From a bacterium (GTDB lineage Bacteria > Zhuqueibacterota > Zhuqueibacteria > Oceanimicrobiales > Oceanimicrobiaceae), in NCBI GenBank assembly GCA_046757165.1, contig JBHHXT010000154.1, positions 1 to 11,457 of the forward strand: DNA of 11,457 nt. Reading direction: 5' to 3'. A program made the translations under genes and the position numbers. Below, piece by piece: positions 815 through 11,457 of this stretch (positions are counted from its first letter, which is position 1; each line of letters starts with the position of its first letter). Below the pieces are notes generated by a model that did not search any database, had not been told where the DNA came from, and worked only from the letters and a program-made list of their open reading frames with translations.

Positions 815-850
815 AACAAAAATAATAATAAAGGGTCGGCTTGCGCCGAC
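815..850 (-). terminator. Probable intrinsic terminator after the 882-aa gene
   Basis: Minus strand GTCGGC-GCAA-GCCGAC (850-835, GNRA tetraloop) begins at the last base of the TAG stop and is followed by CCTTTATTATTATTTTTG. Confidence 0.65.
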
Positions 851-3498
851 TATTTCAACAACAGCATCCGTCTTGTCAGTTTGAATTCTCCCGCAACGAG
901 CTGATAGAGGTAGATCCCTGAAGATACGGCCTCACCGTTTTGCGACCTGCCGTCCCATTCGATTGTGTGGCTCCCGGGCAGCGTATGTCCGCTGGCCAGC
1001 GTCTTGACTAAATGCCCCAGGAGATTGTAGACCCGCAGTTGCACCTGCACGCCGCCAGGAAAGCTTTCCGGGATGGTAAAGACGATTTGCGTGGTTGGAT
1101 TGAACGGATTGGGATAGTTTTGCCTGAGGGCAAAGTTCCCGGGCAGCAAAGGCGTTTGCCCTTTTTCTTCTGTGACTTGCGGATTGAGCCTTGCAAACAT
1201 GGTATCCGGCATCAGGAACGCGAGACCCTCGATGTCCAGGTTCTCCGCGCCGCGGGTCGGAATCCGTGTGCCAATGCCTGTACCCGGGTCGATCGACAGG
1301 AACGTGTGAATCGTCTGCGTGTGACCGTTGCTAAACCCGATCAAATTGCCATCCGGACAGAATTCCAGGCACTCGACGTTTGGAAATCCCACCGAATCTG
1401 CGCTCACCGCGGTTCCGGCTCCCGTGCTGGTGTTGATGGTGATGATCTGCCCGGTTCGGGTATCGGCCCCGAAGAGCGTTGGATTCGATTCCAGGGTAAA
1501 CGCCAACCCTTCGACATCCTTGAAGCCGAGTTCCCCGATCATCGTCACCTCACCCGTCGTCCTGTTGATTTGCAGGAATTTGTGCAGCACGTTATCAACA
1601 CCGAACAATTCGCTCGTGACCGGGTTGATGGCTAACCCTTCGATATCGTCCAGTCCGGTATTGCCGATCAACGTGGCGGGAATATCTGCCGGTGGCGCTG
1701 TCGGGATATTCTTTGGGTCAATTTCATAAAGCCCGCCCTCGTCCTCGTTTACGATAACAAGCATACGCTTCGTGAAGGGGTCCCAGGTCATGCATTCCAG
1801 ATCAACGAGCGTTGCCGACCCGTCTGTGATGGGCCCGAGAATTTCCACGGCCGGATTGAGGGTGCTGAGGTCGAGCTTGATGAGCTCATCGGTGTCACCG
1901 TCAACGCCGAAGAGAATACATTCTTCTGGCCGGCATTGGACGCGTACCGTATCGCTGCAGATGGTCTCGTTGCCGCAGCTATCGACGATGGTGCACACGG
2001 CGATAATCAGGCTATCACAAGGAACAGTCGCCATGAAAGTGATGGTGGAATCGCGCGTGGTGATTTGGCTGACGTCGCTTATGACGCCGTTGATCGCAGA
2101 GGTGATGGTAAAGGGCGGCGTGCCACTTGTGACCGTGGTAACGGCTGTCACCTTGACGCTGTCTGCATCTATCCGGGCGCCGTTTGACGGCGACAGGATG
2201 TCGACCAGACAGGCCGGCGGCGGAGGTGGCTGGGCTCGAACGGTATCCGTGCACACGGTTTGCGTGCCGCAGCTATCAACAATCGTACAGACAGCGATGA
2301 TGAGGCTATCAGCGAAGGGGAAGGGAACGCTGGCGATGAAATTGCGGTTCTCATCGACCTGAGCCGGAACGCCATTGACCTCGCACACAACGCTGAAAGG
2401 ACCGAACCCTGCCGTGATGGTGGTCAACCCCTGCACCGACAGGCTGTCGCCACAGATGACAGAGCTATCCTGTGGCGAGGTGATCTCGGTGACACAGATT
2501 GGGGCCGGTGGTCTGAAGACGTGCAGGGTGTCGGCGCAAACGGTCTGTATCCCACAACTGTCGGTGACAGTGCAGGTGGCAATGATGAGATTATCGGAAA
2601 AGGGGAATGGCACCGTCGTCATAAAATCAACAGTCCTGTCGCTGGTCACAATCGGCGTTGCGCTTGTACCGACGCCATTGACCTCGCAATTGATCGTGAA
2701 GGGGGGAACCCCTTGCTTGATCACGGTCGTCCCGGCTACGGTGACGTTGTCGCCACAGATGATGGCGCTATCTTGTGGAACCGTAATCTCAACCGTACAA
2801 ACGGGTGCCGGCGGGACCTCCACCACAATCGTATCTGTGCAAACAGCTTCGTTGCCACAGCTATCAACCACGGTGCAGACCGCGATGATAGAGTTTTCCT
2901 TGCCGGGCTCGAGAGGCACGGTTGCCATAAACATGGAATCTGTGACAGTCGCCACCACGCCATTGACTTCGCAAAAACGGTCAAAAGGAGGAACGCCGGC
3001 GATGATGTTGAGCATGCCCGTGACTTTCACGCTGTCGCCGCACACGAATGCGCTATCTAAGGGTGAACTGATTTCCGCAAAACATGCGGGCGGGCCTGCG
3101 CGATTGACCAGGGTGAGATTTCTGCTGTTATCGCAGCTCGTCTGGTTGCCTTGCGCATCTGTCACCGTGCAGGCTATCTGGATGAGGTTCAGCCCCACGG
3201 TAAGCGGAATCGTGGCACACAGCACGGAATCATCAGCAACATCCGCCGAAAATCCGTTGATGGTGCAGTCGATGGTGAAAGGATGAGTGCCGCCCTCAAC
3301 GCGCACGACAGCGGTGACTTTGACACTGTCCTCGCAGATCAATGCCCCCTTGGCCGGGGAGAGAACCTCGATCTCACACTGCAAAGCCGTATCCTGGGCA
3401 AAAACTGGTGACGCGTAGCCAACCCGCAGGAAAAAAGTGACAGCCGCCAGCAAAAGGATCGCGATGTCACATCTTCTGGCAATTCTTACGATGTCCAT
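850..3498 (-). CDS. Secreted protein: signal peptide + 5 Cys-rich Ig/HYR-like modules + beta-propeller + T9SS type-A/FlgD-Ig-like C-terminal domain
   Basis: 882-aa ORF; AAGGGGG SD; Sec-type signal ending VFA|Q; modules at ~1921-3378; five D[ILV]EGLA-like blade motifs at ~1211-1920; CTD FALRQNYPNPFNPTTQIVF...VYNLLGHLVKTL...WDGRSQNGEAVSSGIYLYQL...RRMLLLK. Confidence 0.9.
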   Translation of the reverse strand: MDIVRIARRCDIAILLLAAVTFFLRVGYASPVFAQDTALQCEIEVLSPAKGALICEDSVKVTAVVRVEGGTHPFTIDCTINGFSADVADDSVLCATIPLTVGLNLIQIACTVTDAQGNQTSCDNSRNLTLVNRAGPPACFAEISSPLDSAFVCGDSVKVTGMLNIIAGVPPFDRFCEVNGVVATVTDSMFMATVPLEPGKENSIIAVCTVVDSCGNEAVCTDTIVVEVPPAPVCTVEITVPQDSAIICGDNVTVAGTTVIKQGVPPFTINCEVNGVGTSATPIVTSDRTVDFMTTVPFPFSDNLIIATCTVTDSCGIQTVCADTLHVFRPPAPICVTEITSPQDSSVICGDSLSVQGLTTITAGFGPFSVVCEVNGVPAQVDENRNFIASVPFPFADSLIIAVCTIVDSCGTQTVCTDTVRAQPPPPPACLVDILSPSNGARIDADSVKVTAVTTVTSGTPPFTITSAINGVISDVSQITTRDSTITFMATVPCDSLIIAVCTIVDSCGNETICSDTVRVQCRPEECILFGVDGDTDELIKLDLSTLNPAVEILGPITDGSATLVDLECMTWDPFTKRMLVIVNEDEGGLYEIDPKNIPTAPPADIPATLIGNTGLDDIEGLAINPVTSELFGVDNVLHKFLQINRTTGEVTMIGELGFKDVEGLAFTLESNPTLFGADTRTGQIITINTSTGAGTAVSADSVGFPNVECLEFCPDGNLIGFSNGHTQTIHTFLSIDPGTGIGTRIPTRGAENLDIEGLAFLMPDTMFARLNPQVTEEKGQTPLLPGNFALRQNYPNPFNPTTQIVFTIPESFPGGVQVQLRVYNLLGHLVKTLASGHTLPGSHTIEWDGRSQNGEAVSSGIYLYQLVAGEFKLTRRMLLLK
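1921..3378 (-). repeat. Five tandem ~95-101 aa cysteine-rich modules (protein-level repeat)
   Basis: Consensus CxxEIxSPxDxxxxCxDSVxVxxxxxIxxGxxPFxxxCxVNGV...FMATVP...IIAxCTVxDSCGxxTVCxDTxxVxxPPxP repeated five times. Confidence 0.9.
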
Positions 3499-3551
3499 TT
3501 GACGCCCCCTTATTTTGATGAGGACATGCTGTTTTCAGTGTTATGATTTAA

Positions 3552-3632
3552 CCTCACGCAGAGACCGCCGGGCTCGCAGAGTTCTGTTTTTGTCCGTCAC
3601 TTCTCTGCGCGCTTTGCGGACTTTGCGTGAGG
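3552..3632. repeat. REP-like extragenic inverted repeat built from 9-nt (CGCAGAG/CTTTGCG) units
   Basis: Arms 3552-3581 (cctcacgcagagaccgccgggctcgcagag) and 3603-3632 (ctctgcgcgctttgcggactttgcgtgagg) are complementary at 24/30 positions, with a 21-nt spacer; the right arm is three 9-mers. Confidence 0.7.
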
Positions 3633-3667
3633 CAATTCAGGAATCTCAGGCACCGGGCAAACAAGCC

Positions 3668-3755: not shown

Positions 3756-6700
3756 TTATTTCAGGAAGACCATGCGTCTGGTCTGTCGAACATTGCCTGC
3801 GACGAGCTGATAGATGTAAATGCCCGTTGACACCAGCACGCCGTTCTTGTTTTTGCCATCCCATTGAATGGTATACTTTCCTGCTGCTTTGGGCTCATCT
3901 ACCAGCAGGGCCACTTGCTCGCCCAGAAGGTTGAAGATTTGCAGTTTGACCGCCACGCCGTCGAGCTTCTCTGGGATAGCAAAGCGAATCTTCGTCGTCG
4001 GGTTGAACGGGTTCGGGAAGTTTTGCGTCAGTTGAAATTCCTCCGGCATGGCTTGCAGCTCCAGCGTGTGATCGACGTCATCGGAAGTGTCGATCAGGAA
4101 GAAGTTGGCCGTCGTACCCGCGGGTCCCGCATAAGTGATGAGCATCTGATTGGCGCCGGAATGGACGTAATCCACCAGGTCGATGGTGACCTGACCCTGG
4201 CGCGGCATGACGTAGGTGTTCATTTCTTGCTGGGCGCGGCCCGCGTCGGCCACCAATTGGAATTTCTGGCCATTGAGATCCAGCCGAATCTCGGTCAAAC
4301 CAAGATTGCTGACTTGCAGGTAACGGTCGACGTGTGGGAACCGAAACTCGAACTGGCGATTTGCAGCGTCCGCCGCCAGATGGAGAAATACCGGGTCACA
4401 TTCGAATACGTTTCCACACCAGTCGGTCACGATCAAATTGAAGAAGAGCGACTTGTTCGGGTCGATGATGTCGAGCCGGAAGTTGACTTCCTGGGCACCG
4501 TGCTCAAATGGATCGATGGTCAGCTCGACATTGAACAGGGAGTCTTTCTCAATCGTAGCGATGCCGCTTCCTTCGTCGAAAATCGTACCGAAGATGCTAG
4601 ATCCATCCACTGCGAAAAAGCAGCTCGGCGGCTCCTCATCTACTGACACCCGGATGGTGTCCCGGCAGATGGTCTCGAACCCGCAGCTATCGACGATTGT
4701 ACACGTCGCTATCAGAGTAGTATCTCCGGTTAGATTGTTCAACTGCGCCGTAAAGGTGATGGTGGTGTCCCTGGTGGTAAACTCAGCAATGTCGGTCACC
4801 ACACCGTTGAGGTCGCAGGTGACCTTGAACGGGCCGAGTCCGCCTTGAATCGTCGTCTTTCCCGTCACGGTTAGCGTGTCACACACGATCGCACCTTCAA
4901 GAGGAGAGGTGATTTCTGTGTTACACACAGGTCGCGCAGGAACAAACACGATCACCGTGTCACGACAAATCGTCTCGAACTGACAACTATCCACCACGAC
5001 ACAGGTCGCGATGAGCGTGTCATTCTGACCCAATGTCAGCGGAATCGTGGCCATGAAAACACCATCGTCATCGATGGTTGTCGGGATGCCGTTGACATCA
5101 CATTTTCTCTCAAAAGGAGGAAGCCCGCCTTCAACGGTAAGGATACCCGTGACTTTGACGCTGTCATCGCAGTTGACCGTGCCTGCCAGGGGTTGCGTAA
5201 TGTCGACCGTGCAGATGGGTTTGGGAGGAATGTCAACCGTGACCGTATCCGCGCAAACCGTTTCGAATCCACAACTGTCAACCACCGTACACGCCGCGAT
5301 GATGGTGTCGATCTGACCCCGCGTCAGTGGCACCGTCGCCATGAACACGCCTTGCTCATTCACGGTTGCAGCAACGCCGTTGATGTTACAATCTTTGGCA
5401 AAGGGGGACAACCCTCCGTCAATACTGAGAAGGGCGACCACTTTAACGCTGTCATCACAGTTAATGATGCCGTCTGCCGGGGTCGTTATCTGGACCGTGC
5501 AGATGGGTCGTGGTGGAATTTCCAGGGTGATCGTATCCGCACAAACGGTTTTGAAGCCACAACTGTCGACGATGGTACAGGTCGCGATGACGGTATCGAC
5601 CTGGCCGCGGGTCAGCGGCACTTTTGCCATAAAAACACCTTGCTCAGTGACGGTTGCCGCAACGCCGTTGACACGGCAGATCTTGGTGAACGGGCCGACT
5701 CCTCCTTCAATGCTGAGGGTGGCGGTGACTTTGACACTGTCATCACAGTTGATGGTGCCATCCTGCGGGTCGGTGATCCTGACCACACAGACGGGTTTCT
5801 CCGGCACAAATACGACCACGGTGTCGCGGCAGACGGTGGCGAAACCACAACTGTCAACCACGGTACAGGTGGCGATCAGGGTGTCGTTCACCCCGCGCGT
5901 GAGCGGCACCTTTGCCATCAGCACGCCCTGCTGGTCGACGTTTGCCGGAATGCCATTGATATCACACACCTTGCTGAAGGGGCCGAGGCCTCCTTCAATC
6001 GCGAGTACGGCGGTGACTTTGACACTGTCATCACAGTTGATGGTGCCATCCTGTGGTGAGGTAATGTCGACAAAACAGACCGGGGGTTCTGGCCGGGTGA
6101 CGGTCAAAGTGTCGGCGCAGACGACTTGATTGCCGCAATTGTCTGTGACCGTACAGAGGGCAATAATGGTGTTTTCACCGATCGCCATGGGCACCTTCGC
6201 CATGAACATGTTGTCCGTCTTGACAACCTCGACGCCGTTGATGGTGCACAGGGTATCGAACGGCGGCACCCCGGAAGTAATGTCAAGAGCCGCCGTAACC
6301 TTGACGGAGTCGCAGACCAGGGTGCCCTCTTTCGGCTCCGTGATCTTCACCACGCAGGTCGGCAGTTGCGGCCGGTTGACGACCTTCACCAGCCGACATG
6401 TTTCAGCGTCCTGCCGAGAATCCGTGAACGTACATAGGATCTCAACCGTATTCAGGCCAAATTCGAGCGGAATTCTGGCAGAGATGAAGAAGAGTGAATC
6501 GTTCACCACACTGTCGAGCTTCGCCGGGAAACCATTGATCGTACAGTCGGTTTGTATTGGCGGTTGGCCGCCCATCAGGTTGACGACTGCATTGACATCG
6601 ACGGAGTCTGTGCAGATCAGGGCGCCCGGCGACGGGGACAGGAGGTCTATGCTCTTGCATATCAACGTATCCGGACTGATGCAAAGGACGTCGACCGTCG

Positions 6701-7832
6701 CCGTGACCTCTGTGCTCACCGCATCTTCGCCAATCGCCGTGGCTGTAACTGTGAATGGACCAGGAGGAACCCCGGTCAAGGTCTTAGAGAAGGCCCCGAT
6801 GGGGCTCAGGGAAACGGGCATCCCGTTCACACTGACTCCGGCAATGCCGACCGGTTCAATGATTTGCAGCATGCTGGTCAGGTCGCTTGGATTCCTGACG
6901 ACGACGAACTCACCATTGGTCGAATCGGCGATCAGCTTCAGGGCGGTGGTGTCGGAATCAAAGATCGTTGTGTCATCAAGGGCAAGACCAAAGGTGTTGA
7001 TGATGGTTCCCGCCTTGACCGCTTCGCTCAGGGGAGAACCCGAACCTTTTGTAAAGCCGGACGTGCCGCCGGGACCGCGAGGCAAACCGTCCGAGAGAAA
7101 AAAGATGATGTTGGTGCGATTCTCTGGCTGATTGGCAAAAACCCGGTTGGCGAGCGCGAGCGCCGAATCGTAGACTGTAAAAACGGCCAGGTTGTCGACG
7201 AATTTCTTGGTGAACTTTCCGATGCCGGCTCTCAAGAAGACCGGCACGCCGTTGTCATCTTTTGCATTGGTGTCGACTGACCGGGCAACTTCTTCAATAT
7301 CTGGCGTCCCATCATTATTCCGGTCGGCATCAGGTGGGGTGGTGAAGTCCTGCGAATTGACGGCGGGGTCGACATCGGCGACCAATGCATCACTGGCAAA
7401 CGCGATGACCCCGACCTCGACATTGCCCGGGCCGCCCAAAGAGGCATTGAGCGCGACGATGCCAGCAATCTCCGCGTCCAGAATCGTACCCTCAATGCCA
7501 TCACCGTTCTCGTCCCCGACCTCGCCCAGGCTTTGATCGACCCGTTCTGTACTCTCTGAGACATCAATAATGTAGATGACATTGATGCTATCGCCCCCAC
7601 CGATGGTTACGAAGCCTTCAACAGGTATCTCACATTCCGGCCCGATGAAGGTATCACCTGGAGCAGGAGTCGTGATTGCCACAGTGAGAACCTGCCCGGT
7701 GGTTAGTGTATCTGAAGCCGGATTCCCTTGCCCCTGAACAGGAGTCGCGCCAAAGCAGAACATCAAAAACGCAAGTGGCAAGCTTAGCCAAACCCGATAC
7801 CCCATTCTGAATAAAGTCGTAACGTTGAACAT
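3756..7832 (-). CDS. Large secreted adhesin-like protein: signal peptide + vWA (MIDAS) domain + 7 full and 1 degenerate Cys-rich Ig/HYR-like modules + beta-rich domain + T9SS type-A/FlgD-Ig-like CTD
   Basis: 1358-aa ORF; strong AAGGAGG SD (7844-7838); signal ending VQG|Q; vWA motifs VIYIIDVSES, TVYDSAL, IIFFLSDG, INTFGL, LKLIADSTNGEFVVV; CTD FQLTQNFPNPFNPTTKIRF...FNLLGEQVALLV...WDGKNKNGVLVSTGIYIYQL...RRMVFLK. Confidence 0.92.
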   Translation of the reverse strand: MFNVTTLFRMGYRVWLSLPLAFLMFCFGATPVQGQGNPASDTLTTGQVLTVAITTPAPGDTFIGPECEIPVEGFVTIGGGDSINVIYIIDVSESTERVDQSLGEVGDENGDGIEGTILDAEIAGIVALNASLGGPGNVEVGVIAFASDALVADVDPAVNSQDFTTPPDADRNNDGTPDIEEVARSVDTNAKDDNGVPVFLRAGIGKFTKKFVDNLAVFTVYDSALALANRVFANQPENRTNIIFFLSDGLPRGPGGTSGFTKGSGSPLSEAVKAGTIINTFGLALDDTTIFDSDTTALKLIADSTNGEFVVVRNPSDLTSMLQIIEPVGIAGVSVNGMPVSLSPIGAFSKTLTGVPPGPFTVTATAIGEDAVSTEVTATVDVLCISPDTLICKSIDLLSPSPGALICTDSVDVNAVVNLMGGQPPIQTDCTINGFPAKLDSVVNDSLFFISARIPLEFGLNTVEILCTFTDSRQDAETCRLVKVVNRPQLPTCVVKITEPKEGTLVCDSVKVTAALDITSGVPPFDTLCTINGVEVVKTDNMFMAKVPMAIGENTIIALCTVTDNCGNQVVCADTLTVTRPEPPVCFVDITSPQDGTINCDDSVKVTAVLAIEGGLGPFSKVCDINGIPANVDQQGVLMAKVPLTRGVNDTLIATCTVVDSCGFATVCRDTVVVFVPEKPVCVVRITDPQDGTINCDDSVKVTATLSIEGGVGPFTKICRVNGVAATVTEQGVFMAKVPLTRGQVDTVIATCTIVDSCGFKTVCADTITLEIPPRPICTVQITTPADGIINCDDSVKVVALLSIDGGLSPFAKDCNINGVAATVNEQGVFMATVPLTRGQIDTIIAACTVVDSCGFETVCADTVTVDIPPKPICTVDITQPLAGTVNCDDSVKVTGILTVEGGLPPFERKCDVNGIPTTIDDDGVFMATIPLTLGQNDTLIATCVVVDSCQFETICRDTVIVFVPARPVCNTEITSPLEGAIVCDTLTVTGKTTIQGGLGPFKVTCDLNGVVTDIAEFTTRDTTITFTAQLNNLTGDTTLIATCTIVDSCGFETICRDTIRVSVDEEPPSCFFAVDGSSIFGTIFDEGSGIATIEKDSLFNVELTIDPFEHGAQEVNFRLDIIDPNKSLFFNLIVTDWCGNVFECDPVFLHLAADAANRQFEFRFPHVDRYLQVSNLGLTEIRLDLNGQKFQLVADAGRAQQEMNTYVMPRQGQVTIDLVDYVHSGANQMLITYAGPAGTTANFFLIDTSDDVDHTLELQAMPEEFQLTQNFPNPFNPTTKIRFAIPEKLDGVAVKLQIFNLLGEQVALLVDEPKAAGKYTIQWDGKNKNGVLVSTGIYIYQLVAGNVRQTRRMVFLK
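4395..6659 (-). repeat. Seven tandem six-Cys-type modules plus a degenerate eighth; central units have a 288-bp (96-aa) period
   Basis: Protein-level repeats are visible in the translation; an exact 45-bp DNA direct repeat lies at 5721-5765 and 6009-6053 (offset 288). Confidence 0.92.
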
Positions 7833-8342: not shown

Positions 8343-9515
8343 TCAAAAATAAAACTGCAAATACCCAAAAAAACTGCTTTTCAATGTTCCGTATTCGGAG
8401 CGCTCCGGCCCCCGGGTCCAGTAGGCGCTGGCGGCTGCCTCCAAATTCGTAGAGATGGAGTAGACGATGGAGGGTCCAACCAGGCTGCTGCCGTCGTTCA
8501 GATTGACCAGGCTATAGACGTTCAAGACCAGCAGCGGCGTGAGGGATTTGTTTGCTGAAATTGCCAGGTAGTGTTTCGCCAGGTTGAACGTCTGACCCGC
8601 CAGCAGATCACCGAGCTTGTAATTATTCTTGTCCGAACTCCCCTGGCCGTTGTAGTAAAACTCGATAAAGGCGTAGATATCGCCCCGGAAGTTGTAGTCG
8701 GCGTTTAACACAGCGCGCAGGTAGTTGTCGTCTTGATGCTTCCACGTGTAAGCGAATTCACCTCTGAAGCCGGCGCTGCCGAGGTAGCCGGCAAAATCGC
8801 CGCCGAGAACCTTGTCATCCCGAAAATCGCCGCCCATAATGGCGAGATCATAATTGCCCCAATTCGTGCTCATGCGCAGGGAAGCGCTGCTCCTGAGCTC
8901 GTCTTTGCCGGGGGCAAAGGCCGCTTCGACGCGCGAGAGCGTGCCGAAGGGGATCGCCAGATGGATCGCATCAACGCCCTCTTTTTCCGCTAATTCAATG
9001 GCGGCAGGATTAAACGGGTTGAGAAGGTCGGTCGGGTTCCAGGCGAACCCCGTTCCCCAGGCGATGCGCTGCCTGCCAACGGTGAGTTCGGTGCGCCCCA
9101 GGTAGAGAGTGGCAAAAGCACGAAACAGGGATTGTCTGAGCTGAGCTTCGCTACCCTGCTCCACGGTCCAGCTCAAGTCCGCAAAGGTCGGGCGCGCAAG
9201 AATTTCGGAGAATCTGAACTCCGGAGTTTTCAGGAAACTCCCCGCCAGCAGCTCAGTGTCGAGCCAGACCTCAGAATGAACCTTATTGCTGACATCCACC
9301 AGCCCTTTGAGCCGCAGGCGACTGATATCTAAAAAGTACGTCTCGTTTGACAGAATGGACTTCGAGCGGATGGCGAGGTTCTTGGCATAGCCACGGGTTT
9401 GGACAGAAGAATTCTGGGCGGAAGATTGTAATGAAAAGGTCACCAGGAAAACAAAAGAGAGTAGACTGCGTCGGACTATCCCTGCATCTATCCGTCTTCC
9501 GTCTTCCAACCTCAT
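8343..9515 (-). CDS. Hypothetical outer-membrane beta-barrel protein associated with the ABC operon
   Basis: 390 aa; signal peptide (SLQSSA|Q); alternating amphipathic strands; GRQRIAWG..WNPTDLLNP motif; C-terminal YLQFYF BAM-type signal; ATGA overlap with the ATPase stop (9512-9515). Confidence 0.8.
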   Translation of the reverse strand: MRLEDGRRIDAGIVRRSLLSFVFLVTFSLQSSAQNSSVQTRGYAKNLAIRSKSILSNETYFLDISRLRLKGLVDVSNKVHSEVWLDTELLAGSFLKTPEFRFSEILARPTFADLSWTVEQGSEAQLRQSLFRAFATLYLGRTELTVGRQRIAWGTGFAWNPTDLLNPFNPAAIELAEKEGVDAIHLAIPFGTLSRVEAAFAPGKDELRSSASLRMSTNWGNYDLAIMGGDFRDDKVLGGDFAGYLGSAGFRGEFAYTWKHQDDNYLRAVLNADYNFRGDIYAFIEFYYNGQGSSDKNNYKLGDLLAGQTFNLAKHYLAISANKSLTPLLVLNVYSLVNLNDGSSLVGPSIVYSISTNLEAAASAYWTRGPERSEYGTLKSSFFGYLQFYF

Positions 9516-10201
9516 CCGTTTCGCTCCTCCACAATCTCACCGTCACGCAAGAGGATCAACCGCCGTGCCCGTTCCATCACCACCGGATCGTGCGTGGAGA
9601 ACACAAATGTGACCTGCTTTTTTTGGTTCATCTCTTTCATCTTGTCCAGGAGCACCGAGCCGGTCTTGGAATCCAGATTCGCGGTTGGCTCGTCAGCCAG
9701 AATGAGCTTGGGGCGCGAGACCAGCGCTCGTGCCACGGCGACACGCTGCTGCTGGCCGCCACTCAGCTCGTTGGGCCGCCGATGAAGGAGCGCTGCCTCA
9801 ATTCCGAGCTCGGCGAATTCCTGCTTGACACGGCGATGACGTTCCTCGGCGGAGACGCCCTGCAGCAAGAGCATGAACTCTGCATTCTCTTCCGCCGTCA
9901 GGACCGGAATGAGATTGTACGCCTGGAAAATGAACCCCATCGTTTGCAACCGAAACTCTGCCAGCTCGTTGCGATTGAGGGCGGTCAAATCCTGACCAGC
10001 GACCCGGATGGTTCCCGAGGTCGGCTTGTCAAGTCCCCCAATGATATTAAGCAAAGTCGTCTTGCCGGAACCGGACGGCCCGGCGATCGCTGTAAACTCA
10101 CCCGCCTTGATTTTCAGCCCAACATTGTTTAGAGCTCTGACAGGAACTTTGTTCTTGTCGTGGTAAACCTTTACGATATTTGCGAGATTGACGATGCTCA
10201 T
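9512..10201 (-). CDS. ABC transporter ATP-binding protein, LolD/MacB/FtsE-like
   Basis: Walker A GPSGSGKT, Q-loop GFIFQAYNL, signature LSGGQQQRV, Walker B LILADEPT, H-loop FSTHD. Start placed at MSIVNL (ATG 10201), which avoids the 32-nt overlap with the permease implied by the track start at 10258. Confidence 0.93.
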   Translation of the reverse strand: MSIVNLANIVKVYHDKNKVPVRALNNVGLKIKAGEFTAIAGPSGSGKTTLLNIIGGLDKPTSGTIRVAGQDLTALNRNELAEFRLQTMGFIFQAYNLIPVLTAEENAEFMLLLQGVSAEERHRRVKQEFAELGIEAALLHRRPNELSGGQQQRVAVARALVSRPKLILADEPTANLDSKTGSVLLDKMKEMNQKKQVTFVFSTHDPVVMERARRLILLRDGEIVEERNG

Positions 10202-10226
10202 TTCATATTCCGGGTTCGAGTGTGAT

Positions 10227-11447
10227 TTAAACAAATCGTATCGCGTCGACCACCTCAAAACGGCTCGCCTTGAACGACGGATACAGGACAGAGGCGAGCA
10301 CGATCATGTTGATCACGACCACGCCGACGACGATATCATAGAGCGCGATTTTCGGGTAAATGATGGCGCCGACGCCGAAGCGGCTCAGTCCGGAGGCGAA
10401 GTCGGTCAGGTCGAGGCCGGTATAGGCCCAGTAACCCAGCACTGTGACGGAGACGAGCAAGCCAAGCGCCAGGCCGAGCAAGGTAATGAAAAAAGTTTCG
10501 AAGTAAAGCATGAGCCTGATCTTTTTGGGCAGCACGCCATTGGCCATCATGATCCCGAGCTCATAGATACGCTCATAGATCACCATCAGGAACGCGTTGG
10601 CGATACTGAACGCGATGGCCGTGAACAGAATGGCAATCGTAATGACGAGTGAAAAATCGTACAGTTTTAGAGCCAGCTCCAGCAGTTTGTTCCTGTCCTT
10701 CCAGGACAAAACTTCCAGATTCTTTCCGGCCAGCTTTGCCGTCAACCGCGCCTTCAAACCATCGACCTCGAGCGGCGTCCGGATGCTAAACGCCGTGACG
10801 CTGTCGCCATAGCCGGCCAACGTTTGCGCCTGCCGTTGCTCGAGGTAAACAAACGCTTTTTCAAAATCCGGGTTGGAGACACGGTAAATCCCAACGACGC
10901 GGTAGGCGCCTGAGCTGATGGTGTTATCCAGTCCCGAGATCATCAGGACGACTTTTTCACCGAGGATGACGTTCAGCTTTTTCGCCAGCGCCTCGCCGAT
11001 GACGATTTCATTTTTGCCATTTGCGCCGCTGAAATACTGGCCGTCGAGGATGGACTGAGCGATGGTGGTGATATTCGACTCACGCTCCGGAACGACGCCG
11101 TTGATCGAGACGCCGGCGGCCGTTTCGCTGCTGCTGATCATGCCAGCGATTGAAACCAGGGGGGCGCTTTCCAGGTCGGCAAACCCGTCCAGCACCTTTT
11201 CTATCTGCTCCGGCGTCCTGATGAACGCTCTGATGTTTGGATTGTCCTGATACCCTTTGGCCGTAATCATGATGTGACCGCCGTGCAGATTGATGGCGGC
11301 GTCGACCATCTGCTCCAGGAAACCACGGCTGAAGGCGGTGGTTCCCAGATACCCGAAGACACCAACCGCAATCGATGTGATCAAAACCAGCGACCGGCGC
11401 GGGTTGCGCCAGACATTGCGCCAGGCGATTTTCAGAATGATTTTCAT
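10227..11447 (-). CDS. ABC transporter permease, LolC/LolE (MacB_PCD + FtsX) family
   Basis: KIAWRNVWRNPRRSLV N-terminus, one TM, a large periplasmic domain (EIVIGEALAKKL), ANAFLMVIYERIYELGIMMANG motif, three C-terminal TMs, YPSFKASR end; GGAG SD upstream. Confidence 0.93.
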   Translation of the reverse strand: MKIILKIAWRNVWRNPRRSLVLITSIAVGVFGYLGTTAFSRGFLEQMVDAAINLHGGHIMITAKGYQDNPNIRAFIRTPEQIEKVLDGFADLESAPLVSIAGMISSSETAAGVSINGVVPERESNITTIAQSILDGQYFSGANGKNEIVIGEALAKKLNVILGEKVVLMISGLDNTISSGAYRVVGIYRVSNPDFEKAFVYLEQRQAQTLAGYGDSVTAFSIRTPLEVDGLKARLTAKLAGKNLEVLSWKDRNKLLELALKLYDFSLVITIAILFTAIAFSIANAFLMVIYERIYELGIMMANGVLPKKIRLMLYFETFFITLLGLALGLLVSVTVLGYWAYTGLDLTDFASGLSRFGVGAIIYPKIALYDIVVGVVVINMIVLASVLYPSFKASRFEVVDAIRFV

Positions 11448-11457
11448 TTGCGCTCCA

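Follow-up and report, generated by a model that had tools for sequence, protein, structure and literature searches.

Positions 1 to 11,457 of contig JBHHXT010000154.1 of the GenBank assembly GCA_046757165.1, from a member of the Oceanimicrobiaceae (Zhuqueibacterota), contain two paralogous genes whose products, of 1358 and 882 amino acids, carry tandem cysteine-rich modules. This whole stretch of DNA is referred to here as the window. The internal modules of the 1358-aa protein have six cysteines each, C1 to C6. The original prediction was that C1 is bonded to C6 and C3 to C4 within a module, that C2 of each module is bonded to C5 of the next, and that every cysteine of the mature protein is thereby paired in a rigid, unfolding-resistant rod. 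Are the cysteines of these modules paired in this way? And, if so, is it the bond between modules that makes the stalk stiff? Here we investigate both questions using homologues of the modules, a predicted structure and a covalent graph of the stalk.

Covariation of the module cysteines

A profile of the module identified two further genes in the host genome, on contigs C282 and C20. The modules of the C282 paralogue carry, in order, C1-C2-C3-C4-C6, C1-C5-C6 and C1-C3-C4-C6, and the single module of the C20 paralogue carries C1-C3-C4-C6; both satisfy all three pairings with zero exceptions. The homologue search returned 42 rows, two of them taxon-named and labelled candidate division KSB1. Removal of the two window proteins and of two distant matches free of cysteine, together with addition of the C20 paralogue, gave Set 1, with 39 proteins and 153 modules. 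A search of 50% representatives returned 134 new proteins. From these, 60 cysteine-poor proteins were set aside and 74 proteins with 198 modules were kept as Set 2, the requirement being at least two of the six cysteines in some module. The 62 more distant proteins that were retrieved are almost free of cysteine at the module sites, and the cysteine-rich form is a sub-family of the Glucodextran_B family.

Counts are given below as both / first only / second only / neither, and the C2(n)-C5(n+1) bond is called the staple. In Set 1 the counts are 118/3/0/26 for C1-C6 (phi 0.94), 113/9/4/23 for C3-C4 (phi 0.73) and 71/14/0/21 for C2(n)-C5(n+1) (phi 0.71), with phi at most 0.32 for the remaining 13 intramodule and 35 inter-module pairs among C1 to C6. 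The same three pairs were recovered from Set 2, with 134/11/4/34 for C1-C6 (phi 0.77), 110/10/21/51 for C3-C4 (phi 0.65) and 40/10/0/55 for C2(n)-C5(n+1) (phi 0.82). Some proteins of this set are cysteine-poor throughout, which raises its background correlations to as much as 0.49. When the sets are pooled (113 proteins, 351 modules, 211 junctions), the inter-module pair gives 111/24/0/76 (phi 0.79), such that C5(n+1) never occurs without C2(n) in 211 junctions; filtering below 50% identity leaves 59/16/0/59. Shuffling within the 17 proteins that have both states gave an expectation of 26.0 concordant junctions out of 55, where 49 are observed (p ~1e-5). The C2(n)/C5(n+1) pattern is far beyond chance.

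Two further analyses address relatedness and the choice of columns. A FastTree phylogeny of 221 junctions, including the 10 of the window, was made with the cysteine columns masked, and on it C2 changes 17 times, C5(n+1) 18 times and their joint state 22 times. Contrasts over all branches, calculated with a purpose-written script and including unsupported branches, give for C2(n)-C5(n+1), out of 17, 13.0 in the same direction and 0 opposite (median p 2e-4), as compared with 38.9 to 0 for C1-C6 and 34.0 to 1.1 for C3-C4. In an all-against-all scan of 190 columns by mutual information with average product correction (MI-APC), with the C1, C2 and C6 columns anchored by motif, the top five column pairs comprise two instances each of C1-C6 and C3-C4 together with C2(n)-C5(n+1), which is first among 8010 inter-module pairs. 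The coevolution check proposed with the original prediction thus returned its own three pairings, which also replicated in the new homologue sets, after the redundancy filter and in the all-branch contrasts.

Could the cysteines be paired differently? By hairpin register C4 and C6 would be cross-strand neighbours, suggesting a C4-C6 bond across the terminal hairpin, and C5-C6, C2-C5 within one module, and C2(n)-C1(n+1) are also conceivable. Seven modules keep only C1 and C4, and some variants may bond alternatively. As the general scheme, however, these pairings are highly improbable: phi in Sets 1 and 2 is 0.14 and -0.16 for C4-C6, 0.12 and 0.00 for C5-C6, 0.09 and 0.10 for C2-C5 within a module, and -0.20 and -0.30 for C2(n)-C1(n+1), and none has a same-direction trend in the all-branch contrasts.

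Alternatively, the cysteines might ligate metal ions such as Zn, at core or junction sites, instead of forming disulfides. The predicted topology puts C1, C3, C4 and C6 on adjacent strands towards one end of the sandwich, C2 and C5 have Asp residues on their flanks, and orphan cysteines are tolerated. Yet the core cysteines vary in pairs and not in fours: among 330 modules, 166 have all four, 57 have C1 and C6 alone, 43 have C3 and C4 alone and 10 have none. Disulfides would be expected to behave in this way, and a site with four ligands would not. Likewise, the residues in place of lost cysteines are small or hydrophobic, with one His and one Asp, the proteins have export signals, and the host encodes an oxidative-folding fusion, described below. 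Metal binding is very improbable on these grounds.

The 24 pooled junctions with C2 and no C5 are themselves informative. In Set 1, 13 of 14 such junctions have a cysteine at the end of the last strand of the same module, a substitute partner, and in the pooled sets 23 of 24 have a substitute either there or shifted by two residues in the next hairpin. A partner rule extended to C5, the shifted hairpin cysteine or the last-strand cysteine, and devised post hoc, gives 134/1/3/73. With the rule set in advance, 59 of 60 junctions in Set 3 are concordant (24/0/1/35). This set derives from 20 loci of a search of the phylum, chosen for long frames, with 11 duplicates of earlier proteins dropped. The model used in that search includes the shared C-terminal tail, for which reason the tally of genomes (151 of 151 match) is uninformative, and it was used mainly to choose loci; the best E is below 1e-90 in 31 of the 151 genomes and in none of the 42 outside the class of the host. 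A search for loci related to the window returned one weak locus, L001, which was left out of the analysis. Where C2 is the likely partner of the last-strand cysteine, the latter is at offset 7 (14 of 15 anchored); where the likely partner is a cysteine of the E-F loop, it is at offset 6 (23 of 23 anchored). A further pair links strands B and E (9/0/0/138 in Set 1).

The linker also differs with the staple. Counting from C6 to the C1 that follows, 102 of 111 stapled junctions have a spacing of 14, versus 48 of 76 unstapled ones, and the spacing is 13 in all seven junctions with a shifted hairpin cysteine. The linker has 1.88 prolines when stapled versus 0.97 when not, and a fixed, more proline-rich linker suggests constrained geometry. 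Another possibility is that C2 and C5 bond two chains to one another, in staggered dimers or a surface mesh. Both are at predicted exposed loop or edge positions, and covariation is blind to whether a bond is within or between chains. Against this, C5 depends on the adjacent module, on the length of the linker and on a substitute cysteine five residues ahead of the next module, and such junction-local dependence is the geometry expected of an intra-chain junction. We would be surprised if the bonds were between chains.

The ends of the arrays are mostly as expected of the staple. C5 is missing from 93 of the 99 first modules that were scored. Among 101 scored last modules, C2 is kept and a terminal unit with a hairpin cysteine comes next in 80, with 3 more added by reading, and 9 lack both.

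Several observations weigh against a simple and universal pairing scheme. Well-supported branches of the junction tree give only 3 independent contrasts (p 0.25), so that the control for relatedness is suggestive and not strict. C1, C3, C4 or C6 is unpaired in 54 of 330 modules, and incomplete pairing is evidently tolerated. Only 1 of the 60 junctions of Set 3 is a C2-C5 pair, the other 23 partnered junctions being intramodule swaps from three related proteins. In addition, C2 is kept in 7 last modules that precede an unrelated domain offering it no evident partner, the hairpin cysteine occurs without a C2 in 2 terminal units, and C5 is kept by 6 of the 99 first modules, of which two lack any cysteine in the preceding 110 residues. 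Taking all of this together, the C1-C6, C3-C4 and C2(n)-C5(n+1) pairings, in a covalent stalk with two rails, are probably correct, the bonds themselves being deduced from patterns of presence and absence. The expectation that every cysteine is paired does not hold generally, given the 54 modules above and two probable orphans in the 882-aa protein.

Three further observations come from the homologues. In P0020 (residues ~490-580) and P0117 (residues ~215-300), the first module has C5 and is preceded by a unit matching PKD in Pfam or one with an HYR-like pattern, with a cysteine positioned like a C2; it is possible that the staple operates between different domain families. In P0085, P0127, P0132, P0161, P0162 and P0174 a lamin-tail-like domain comes after the modules, with C2 lacking an evident partner; the Pfam LTD match was confirmed for P0127, and C4 is present without C3 in five of the six. 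Finally, adjoining three-module stretches at L003:4776-7901, within a 24-module array, have 67-89% protein identity and are a recent expansion within an otherwise diverged array.

Predicted fold and mechanics of the stalk

The Pfam family matched by the modules is Glucodextran_B (PF09136, cut-off 27 bits), with 63.7 bits for the 1358-aa protein; the 882-aa protein (26.7 bits) and single modules (21.7 and 26.6 bits) fall just below the cut-off. An AlphaFold model of the last two modules and terminal unit of the longer protein (A6-A7-A8, from a 36-row alignment) is nearly all beta, with a local confidence (pLDDT) of 95 and a predicted template-modelling score (pTM) of 0.79. In it the first strand bears C1, the last strand C6 and the terminal hairpin C5; C2 comes directly after a short A' stretch, and both C3 and C4 belong to core strands. 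The fold matches residues 688-773 of 1ULV, domain B of glucodextranase (Z 11.5, root-mean-square deviation 1.9, 82 aligned), tied with sulfite-oxidase immunoglobulin (Ig) domains, and the extended tandems of MpAFP over ~250 residues (5IRB, Z 10.8; 4P99, Z 9.8). A sequence search for solved relatives found none at E < 0.02, Foldseek against the PDB and viral libraries found generic tandem-Ig matches only, and in the ESM Atlas all matches were under 0.9 and to Ig-like or unnamed clusters only. The modules are predicted to be Glucodextran_B-like Ig folds in an extended tandem arrangement.

If the pairings are correct, C1-C6 would clamp each module shut from first to last strand and C2(n)-C5(n+1) would tie each module to the next. 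What each bond might contribute was calculated on a covalent graph of residues 392-1145, with an assumed 0.365 nm per residue and 0.6 nm per disulfide. With no bond included, the path between the ends measures 275 nm. Adding C1-C6 alone shortens it to 40.9 nm and adding C2-C5 alone to 47.3 nm; all three together again give 40.9 nm. C1-C6 would thus cap the extension of the eight-unit stalk at ~41 nm, near its folded length, which is ~36 nm at the 4.5 nm per repeat given for MpAFP in the accessible part of PMC4083281. On this graph C2-C5 makes no difference to the 40.9 nm, so the limit comes from C1-C6 and not from the inter-module bond, which corrects the original prediction. What the staple would add is a second covalent rail at each junction, as long as the backbone rail. 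One rail runs from C1 to C2 and the other from C6 to the C1 that follows; both have 14 residues in six of seven cases, and the hinge would be held at two points. Of 753 single backbone cuts, the number that part the two ends drops from 99 to 0 once C2-C5 is in the graph; with a second rail at every junction no single cut would sever the stalk.

Does the staple also stiffen the stalk? It is possible that it does. A fuller reading is that the protein is a disulfide-ladder rod, which no single cut severs, which is stiffer than its unstapled kin, and which is tuned junction by junction, in a general design of Gram-negative stalks. If this is true, two equal 14-residue rails at each junction would ensure that no single cut unfolds or severs the stalk. 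Lineages would set the staple on, off or within a module at each junction, tuning flexibility, and inter-repeat disulfides would be an unrecognised general device by which the surface stalks of Gram-negative bacteria are stiffened, a covalent equivalent of the RTX Ca2+ bridge. We put this forward tentatively and think it rather doubtful as a whole. The mechanical figures depend on assumed lengths. In arrays of at least seven modules only 19 of 62 junctions have the staple, and the 21- and 24-module arrays of L002 and L003 have no internal staple, C2 being kept only at the base. An unstapled three-module AlphaFold control also folds, with a pLDDT of 97 and a pTM of 0.76 versus 0.79, and the model gives no sign that the staple alters geometry or stiffness; pTM as evidence of rigidity was dropped. 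The longest arrays and the control likewise leave the rigid rod of the original prediction unsupported.

The same pairing may instead be of minor mechanical importance, differing from the above only in function, with the staple aiding folding, export or protease resistance and the shape of the rod coming from the short linker and the module interface. This we regard as not far below an even chance. The two longest arrays hold only C1-C6 internally, the unstapled control is predicted with equal confidence, and adding C2-C5 to the graph does not shorten the path. Moreover, C2 can swap to an intramodule partner that makes no link across the junction (16 cases, and 23 of 60 junctions in Set 3). 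On the other side, the staple is retained at almost every base junction (the 80 of 101 last modules noted above and the three by reading), and it is accompanied by the fixed, proline-richer linker, which suggests constraint. Because arrays may lack it internally yet nearly always have it at their base junction, the staple would be a reinforcement and not something needed to build the rod.

Architecture of the two genes, export and surroundings

The features of the two genes are listed in Table 1. In the 1358-aa protein the von Willebrand factor type A (vWA) domain, approximately residues 83-325 with DVSES at 90 and SDG at 247, splits an Ig module of the same type (A0), the point of insertion being taken from the sequence. 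The vWA domain also has two DxDxDG-like acidic loops, at residues 107 and 170. The cysteines flanking it, C67 (nt 7632-7634) and C384 (nt 6681-6683), had been proposed as a pair; they are likely to be an intradomain pair, both being kept in 8 of 11 vWA-headed homologues, although this is conservation and not covariation.

Table 1. Positions of the two stalk genes and their parts in the window
Feature	Position	Strand	Remarks
1358-aa gene, N-terminal part and array	3756..7832	minus	Signal-like N-terminus, Ig module with inserted vWA, seven Cys-rich Ig modules
1358-aa gene, C-terminal part	3756..7832	minus	Terminal Ig unit, further unnamed domain, domain like the type A sorting domain of a type IX secretion system (T9SS)
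Head, Ig module A0 split by vWA	6672..7700	minus	VWA_2 27.1 bits, cut-off 27
Module A1	6369..6671	minus	C1 (C392), C2 (C407), C3 (C430), C4 (C467), C6 (C479); no C5
Modules A2-A7	4635..6368	minus	Six Cys each, near-constant spacing
Terminal unit A8	4374..4634	minus	All-beta; C1071, C1139, C1145; no Pfam match
C-terminal sorting-like domain, 1358-aa protein	3756..4028	minus	TIGR04183 27.9 bits, cut-off 23; FlgD_ig
882-aa paralogous gene	850..3498	minus	Signal-like N-terminus, five modules, propeller-like region, T9SS type A-like C-terminus (TIGR04183 29.7 bits; FlgD_ig)
Modules B1-B5	1930..3390	minus	
Propeller-like repeat region after B5	1204..1929	minus	DUF6923, DUF4394 and SdiA-regulated matches weak, all below cut-off

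The open reading frame of the longer protein has 47 cysteines, one of which, C26, is inside a hydrophobic N-terminus judged by eye to be a signal peptide, leaving the 46 that had been counted in the mature protein. The census likewise bears out the six cysteines of A2-A7 and the lack of C5 in A1 and B1. The inter-module bonds predicted for this array are C407-C566, C507-C662, C600-C758, C696-C854, C792-C950, C888-C1050 and C984-C1139. In the last of these the likely partner of the final C2 is the hairpin cysteine of A8. This unit does have only C1, C5 and C6, as first read, but it is not a degenerate module. Most homologues have it behind their last module, as a conserved beta-sandwich domain in its own right.

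For the 882-aa protein, with 35 cysteines in its open reading frame, the predicted inter-module bonds are C55-C214, C153-C315, C248-C410 and C349-C508. B1 has an extra cysteine, C94, that was overlooked in the original prediction. The lack of C2 in B5 was correctly noted and is only part of the difference, as B5 also has Ser (codon TCT) in place of C3, keeps C4 (C502), and has the extra cysteines C494 and C522, while four more (527, 569, 710 and 714) are in the propeller-like region. C494-C522 is likely to be an additional pair, because pairs of an E-F-loop and a last-strand cysteine exist in homologues. C94, marked as an orphan because of the strand B-E pair, and C502 are the likely orphans; an unpaired C94 could link chains. 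The protein has no N-terminal head, B1 following directly on the signal-like sequence, and the homologues P0013, L007, L010 and L017 likewise begin with modules. The propeller-like region is on the C-terminal side and likely cell-proximal.

Both proteins are likely to be secreted as T9SS cargo. By reading, their N-termini are basic and then hydrophobic, and both tails exceed the cut-off for NCBIfam TIGR04183 (T9SS type A sorting), with scores for the Pfam Por_Secre_tail below cut-off. The host genome has SprA_N and PorV over their cut-offs, these being the T9SS components covered by the search, and at C5:49839-51164 it has a 442-aa frame that matches both VKOR and Thioredoxin_4 (DsbA-like), a candidate oxidase for these stalk proteins. 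The presence of SprA, PorV and this fusion makes T9SS export and oxidative folding plausible. The disulfides would form in the periplasm, before export. The type A route is described in PMC12635249, the accessible part of which does not mention repeat disulfides. The same C-terminal tail motif is present in 119 open frames of the host genome. Other cysteine-rich proteins with this motif and different repeats are encoded at C192:1452-6317, C34:6753-11087, C70:13981-18705 and C74:13336-17547.

Between the two genes, at 3548-3636, is a dispersed repeat of ~90 bp that resembles a repetitive extragenic palindrome or a miniature inverted-repeat transposable element. BLAST gives 32 matches on other host contigs, of which ~28 are to this stretch, with identities of 75-92%. 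Upstream are genes for a MacB/FtsX-type ATP-binding cassette (ABC) permease, an ABC ATPase and a protein of 390 aa that matches neither Pfam nor NCBIfam, and downstream are an ArsR regulator and a partial gene; these flanking genes (8343-11457 and 1-777) have no evident link to the stalk.

Comparison with known stalks

Cross-linked Ig stalks are already known; the inter-module bond is well supported here by the covariation, and its gain in stiffness is unproven. Autocatalytic isopeptide or ester chemistry of the CnaB or Cpe0147 type was not encountered in these modules, where the invariant residues are cysteines, and no new chemistry is revealed. In animal proteins, the Siglec D1 and D2 domains are joined by an inter-domain disulfide at a single junction. 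SprB, the CHU Ig_7 repeats and HYR-type repeats with two cysteines presumably have them at similar strand and hairpin positions, a lead and not a test, and the staple design may be widespread and perhaps informally known from predicted structures. No statement of inter-repeat disulfides in SprB or HYR repeats was found in the literature covered. That coverage is partial, excluding most subscription journals, Pfam entry texts and supplements, and within it neither this stalk family nor any bacterial Ig stalk with repeated disulfides between domains was found described.

The closest precedents in design are Spy0128 (isopeptide), Cpe0147 (ester) and the Mobiluncus giant adhesin (PMC8382745, PMC10619420, PMC12617251, each as far as accessible). 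Like these, the window proteins have tandem Ig-like domains with a covalent link from first to last strand, here predicted, and bonds of this kind, including an engineered disulfide, block mechanical unfolding according to the accessible part of PMC8382745. Unlike them, a T9SS-type protein of a Gram-negative bacterium would here have natural disulfides as its links, with one class of bond spanning two modules; in the accessible parts of the three papers the cross-links are all intradomain, and the linker of the Mobiluncus protein is described as flexible.

In arrangement, the stalk is closest to region II of MpAFP (4P99, 5IRB), the Ca2+-rigidified extender of an RTX adhesin, likewise an extended tandem of ~100-residue Ig-like repeats. 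There Ca2+ bridges the corresponding junction in an ionic and reversible manner, and the stiffening has been measured by small-angle X-ray scattering (PMC4083281, accessible part). The window proteins differ from MpAFP in the predicted covalent bridge, in diverged repeats where those of MpAFP are identical, and in their export signal. Glucodextranase domain B (PF09136, 1ULV) is at once the best Pfam family and a top fold match of the modules. The Periscope proteins (PMC9704523, accessible part) share a single-chain rod of tandem repeats with variable module number and varied heads. Among the distant homologues compared, module number is 1-11, and up to 24 in the phylum-search loci. The high repeat identity that defines the Periscope class is not shared, identity between modules being 47-72% in DNA and at most 71% in protein. 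As compared with a fibrillar adhesin of head, stalk and anchor, the 1358-aa protein has a candidate head, the vWA domain, and the 882-aa protein has none at its N-terminus.

A repeated inter-module disulfide would therefore add a design to those described, in which the cross-links of stalks are intradomain and inter-repeat stiffening is by Ca2+, going by the parts of those sources cited above. The setting would be a T9SS-type cargo of an uncultured lineage. This family also offers a natural experiment, in which one fold has stapled, unstapled and intramodule-swapped junctions and the effect of the bond on stiffness, force and proteases is measurable, and it would be a template for stiff or cut-proof protein spacers. 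Where MpAFP holds its junctions with a reversible ion, these stalks would hold theirs with a covalent bond.

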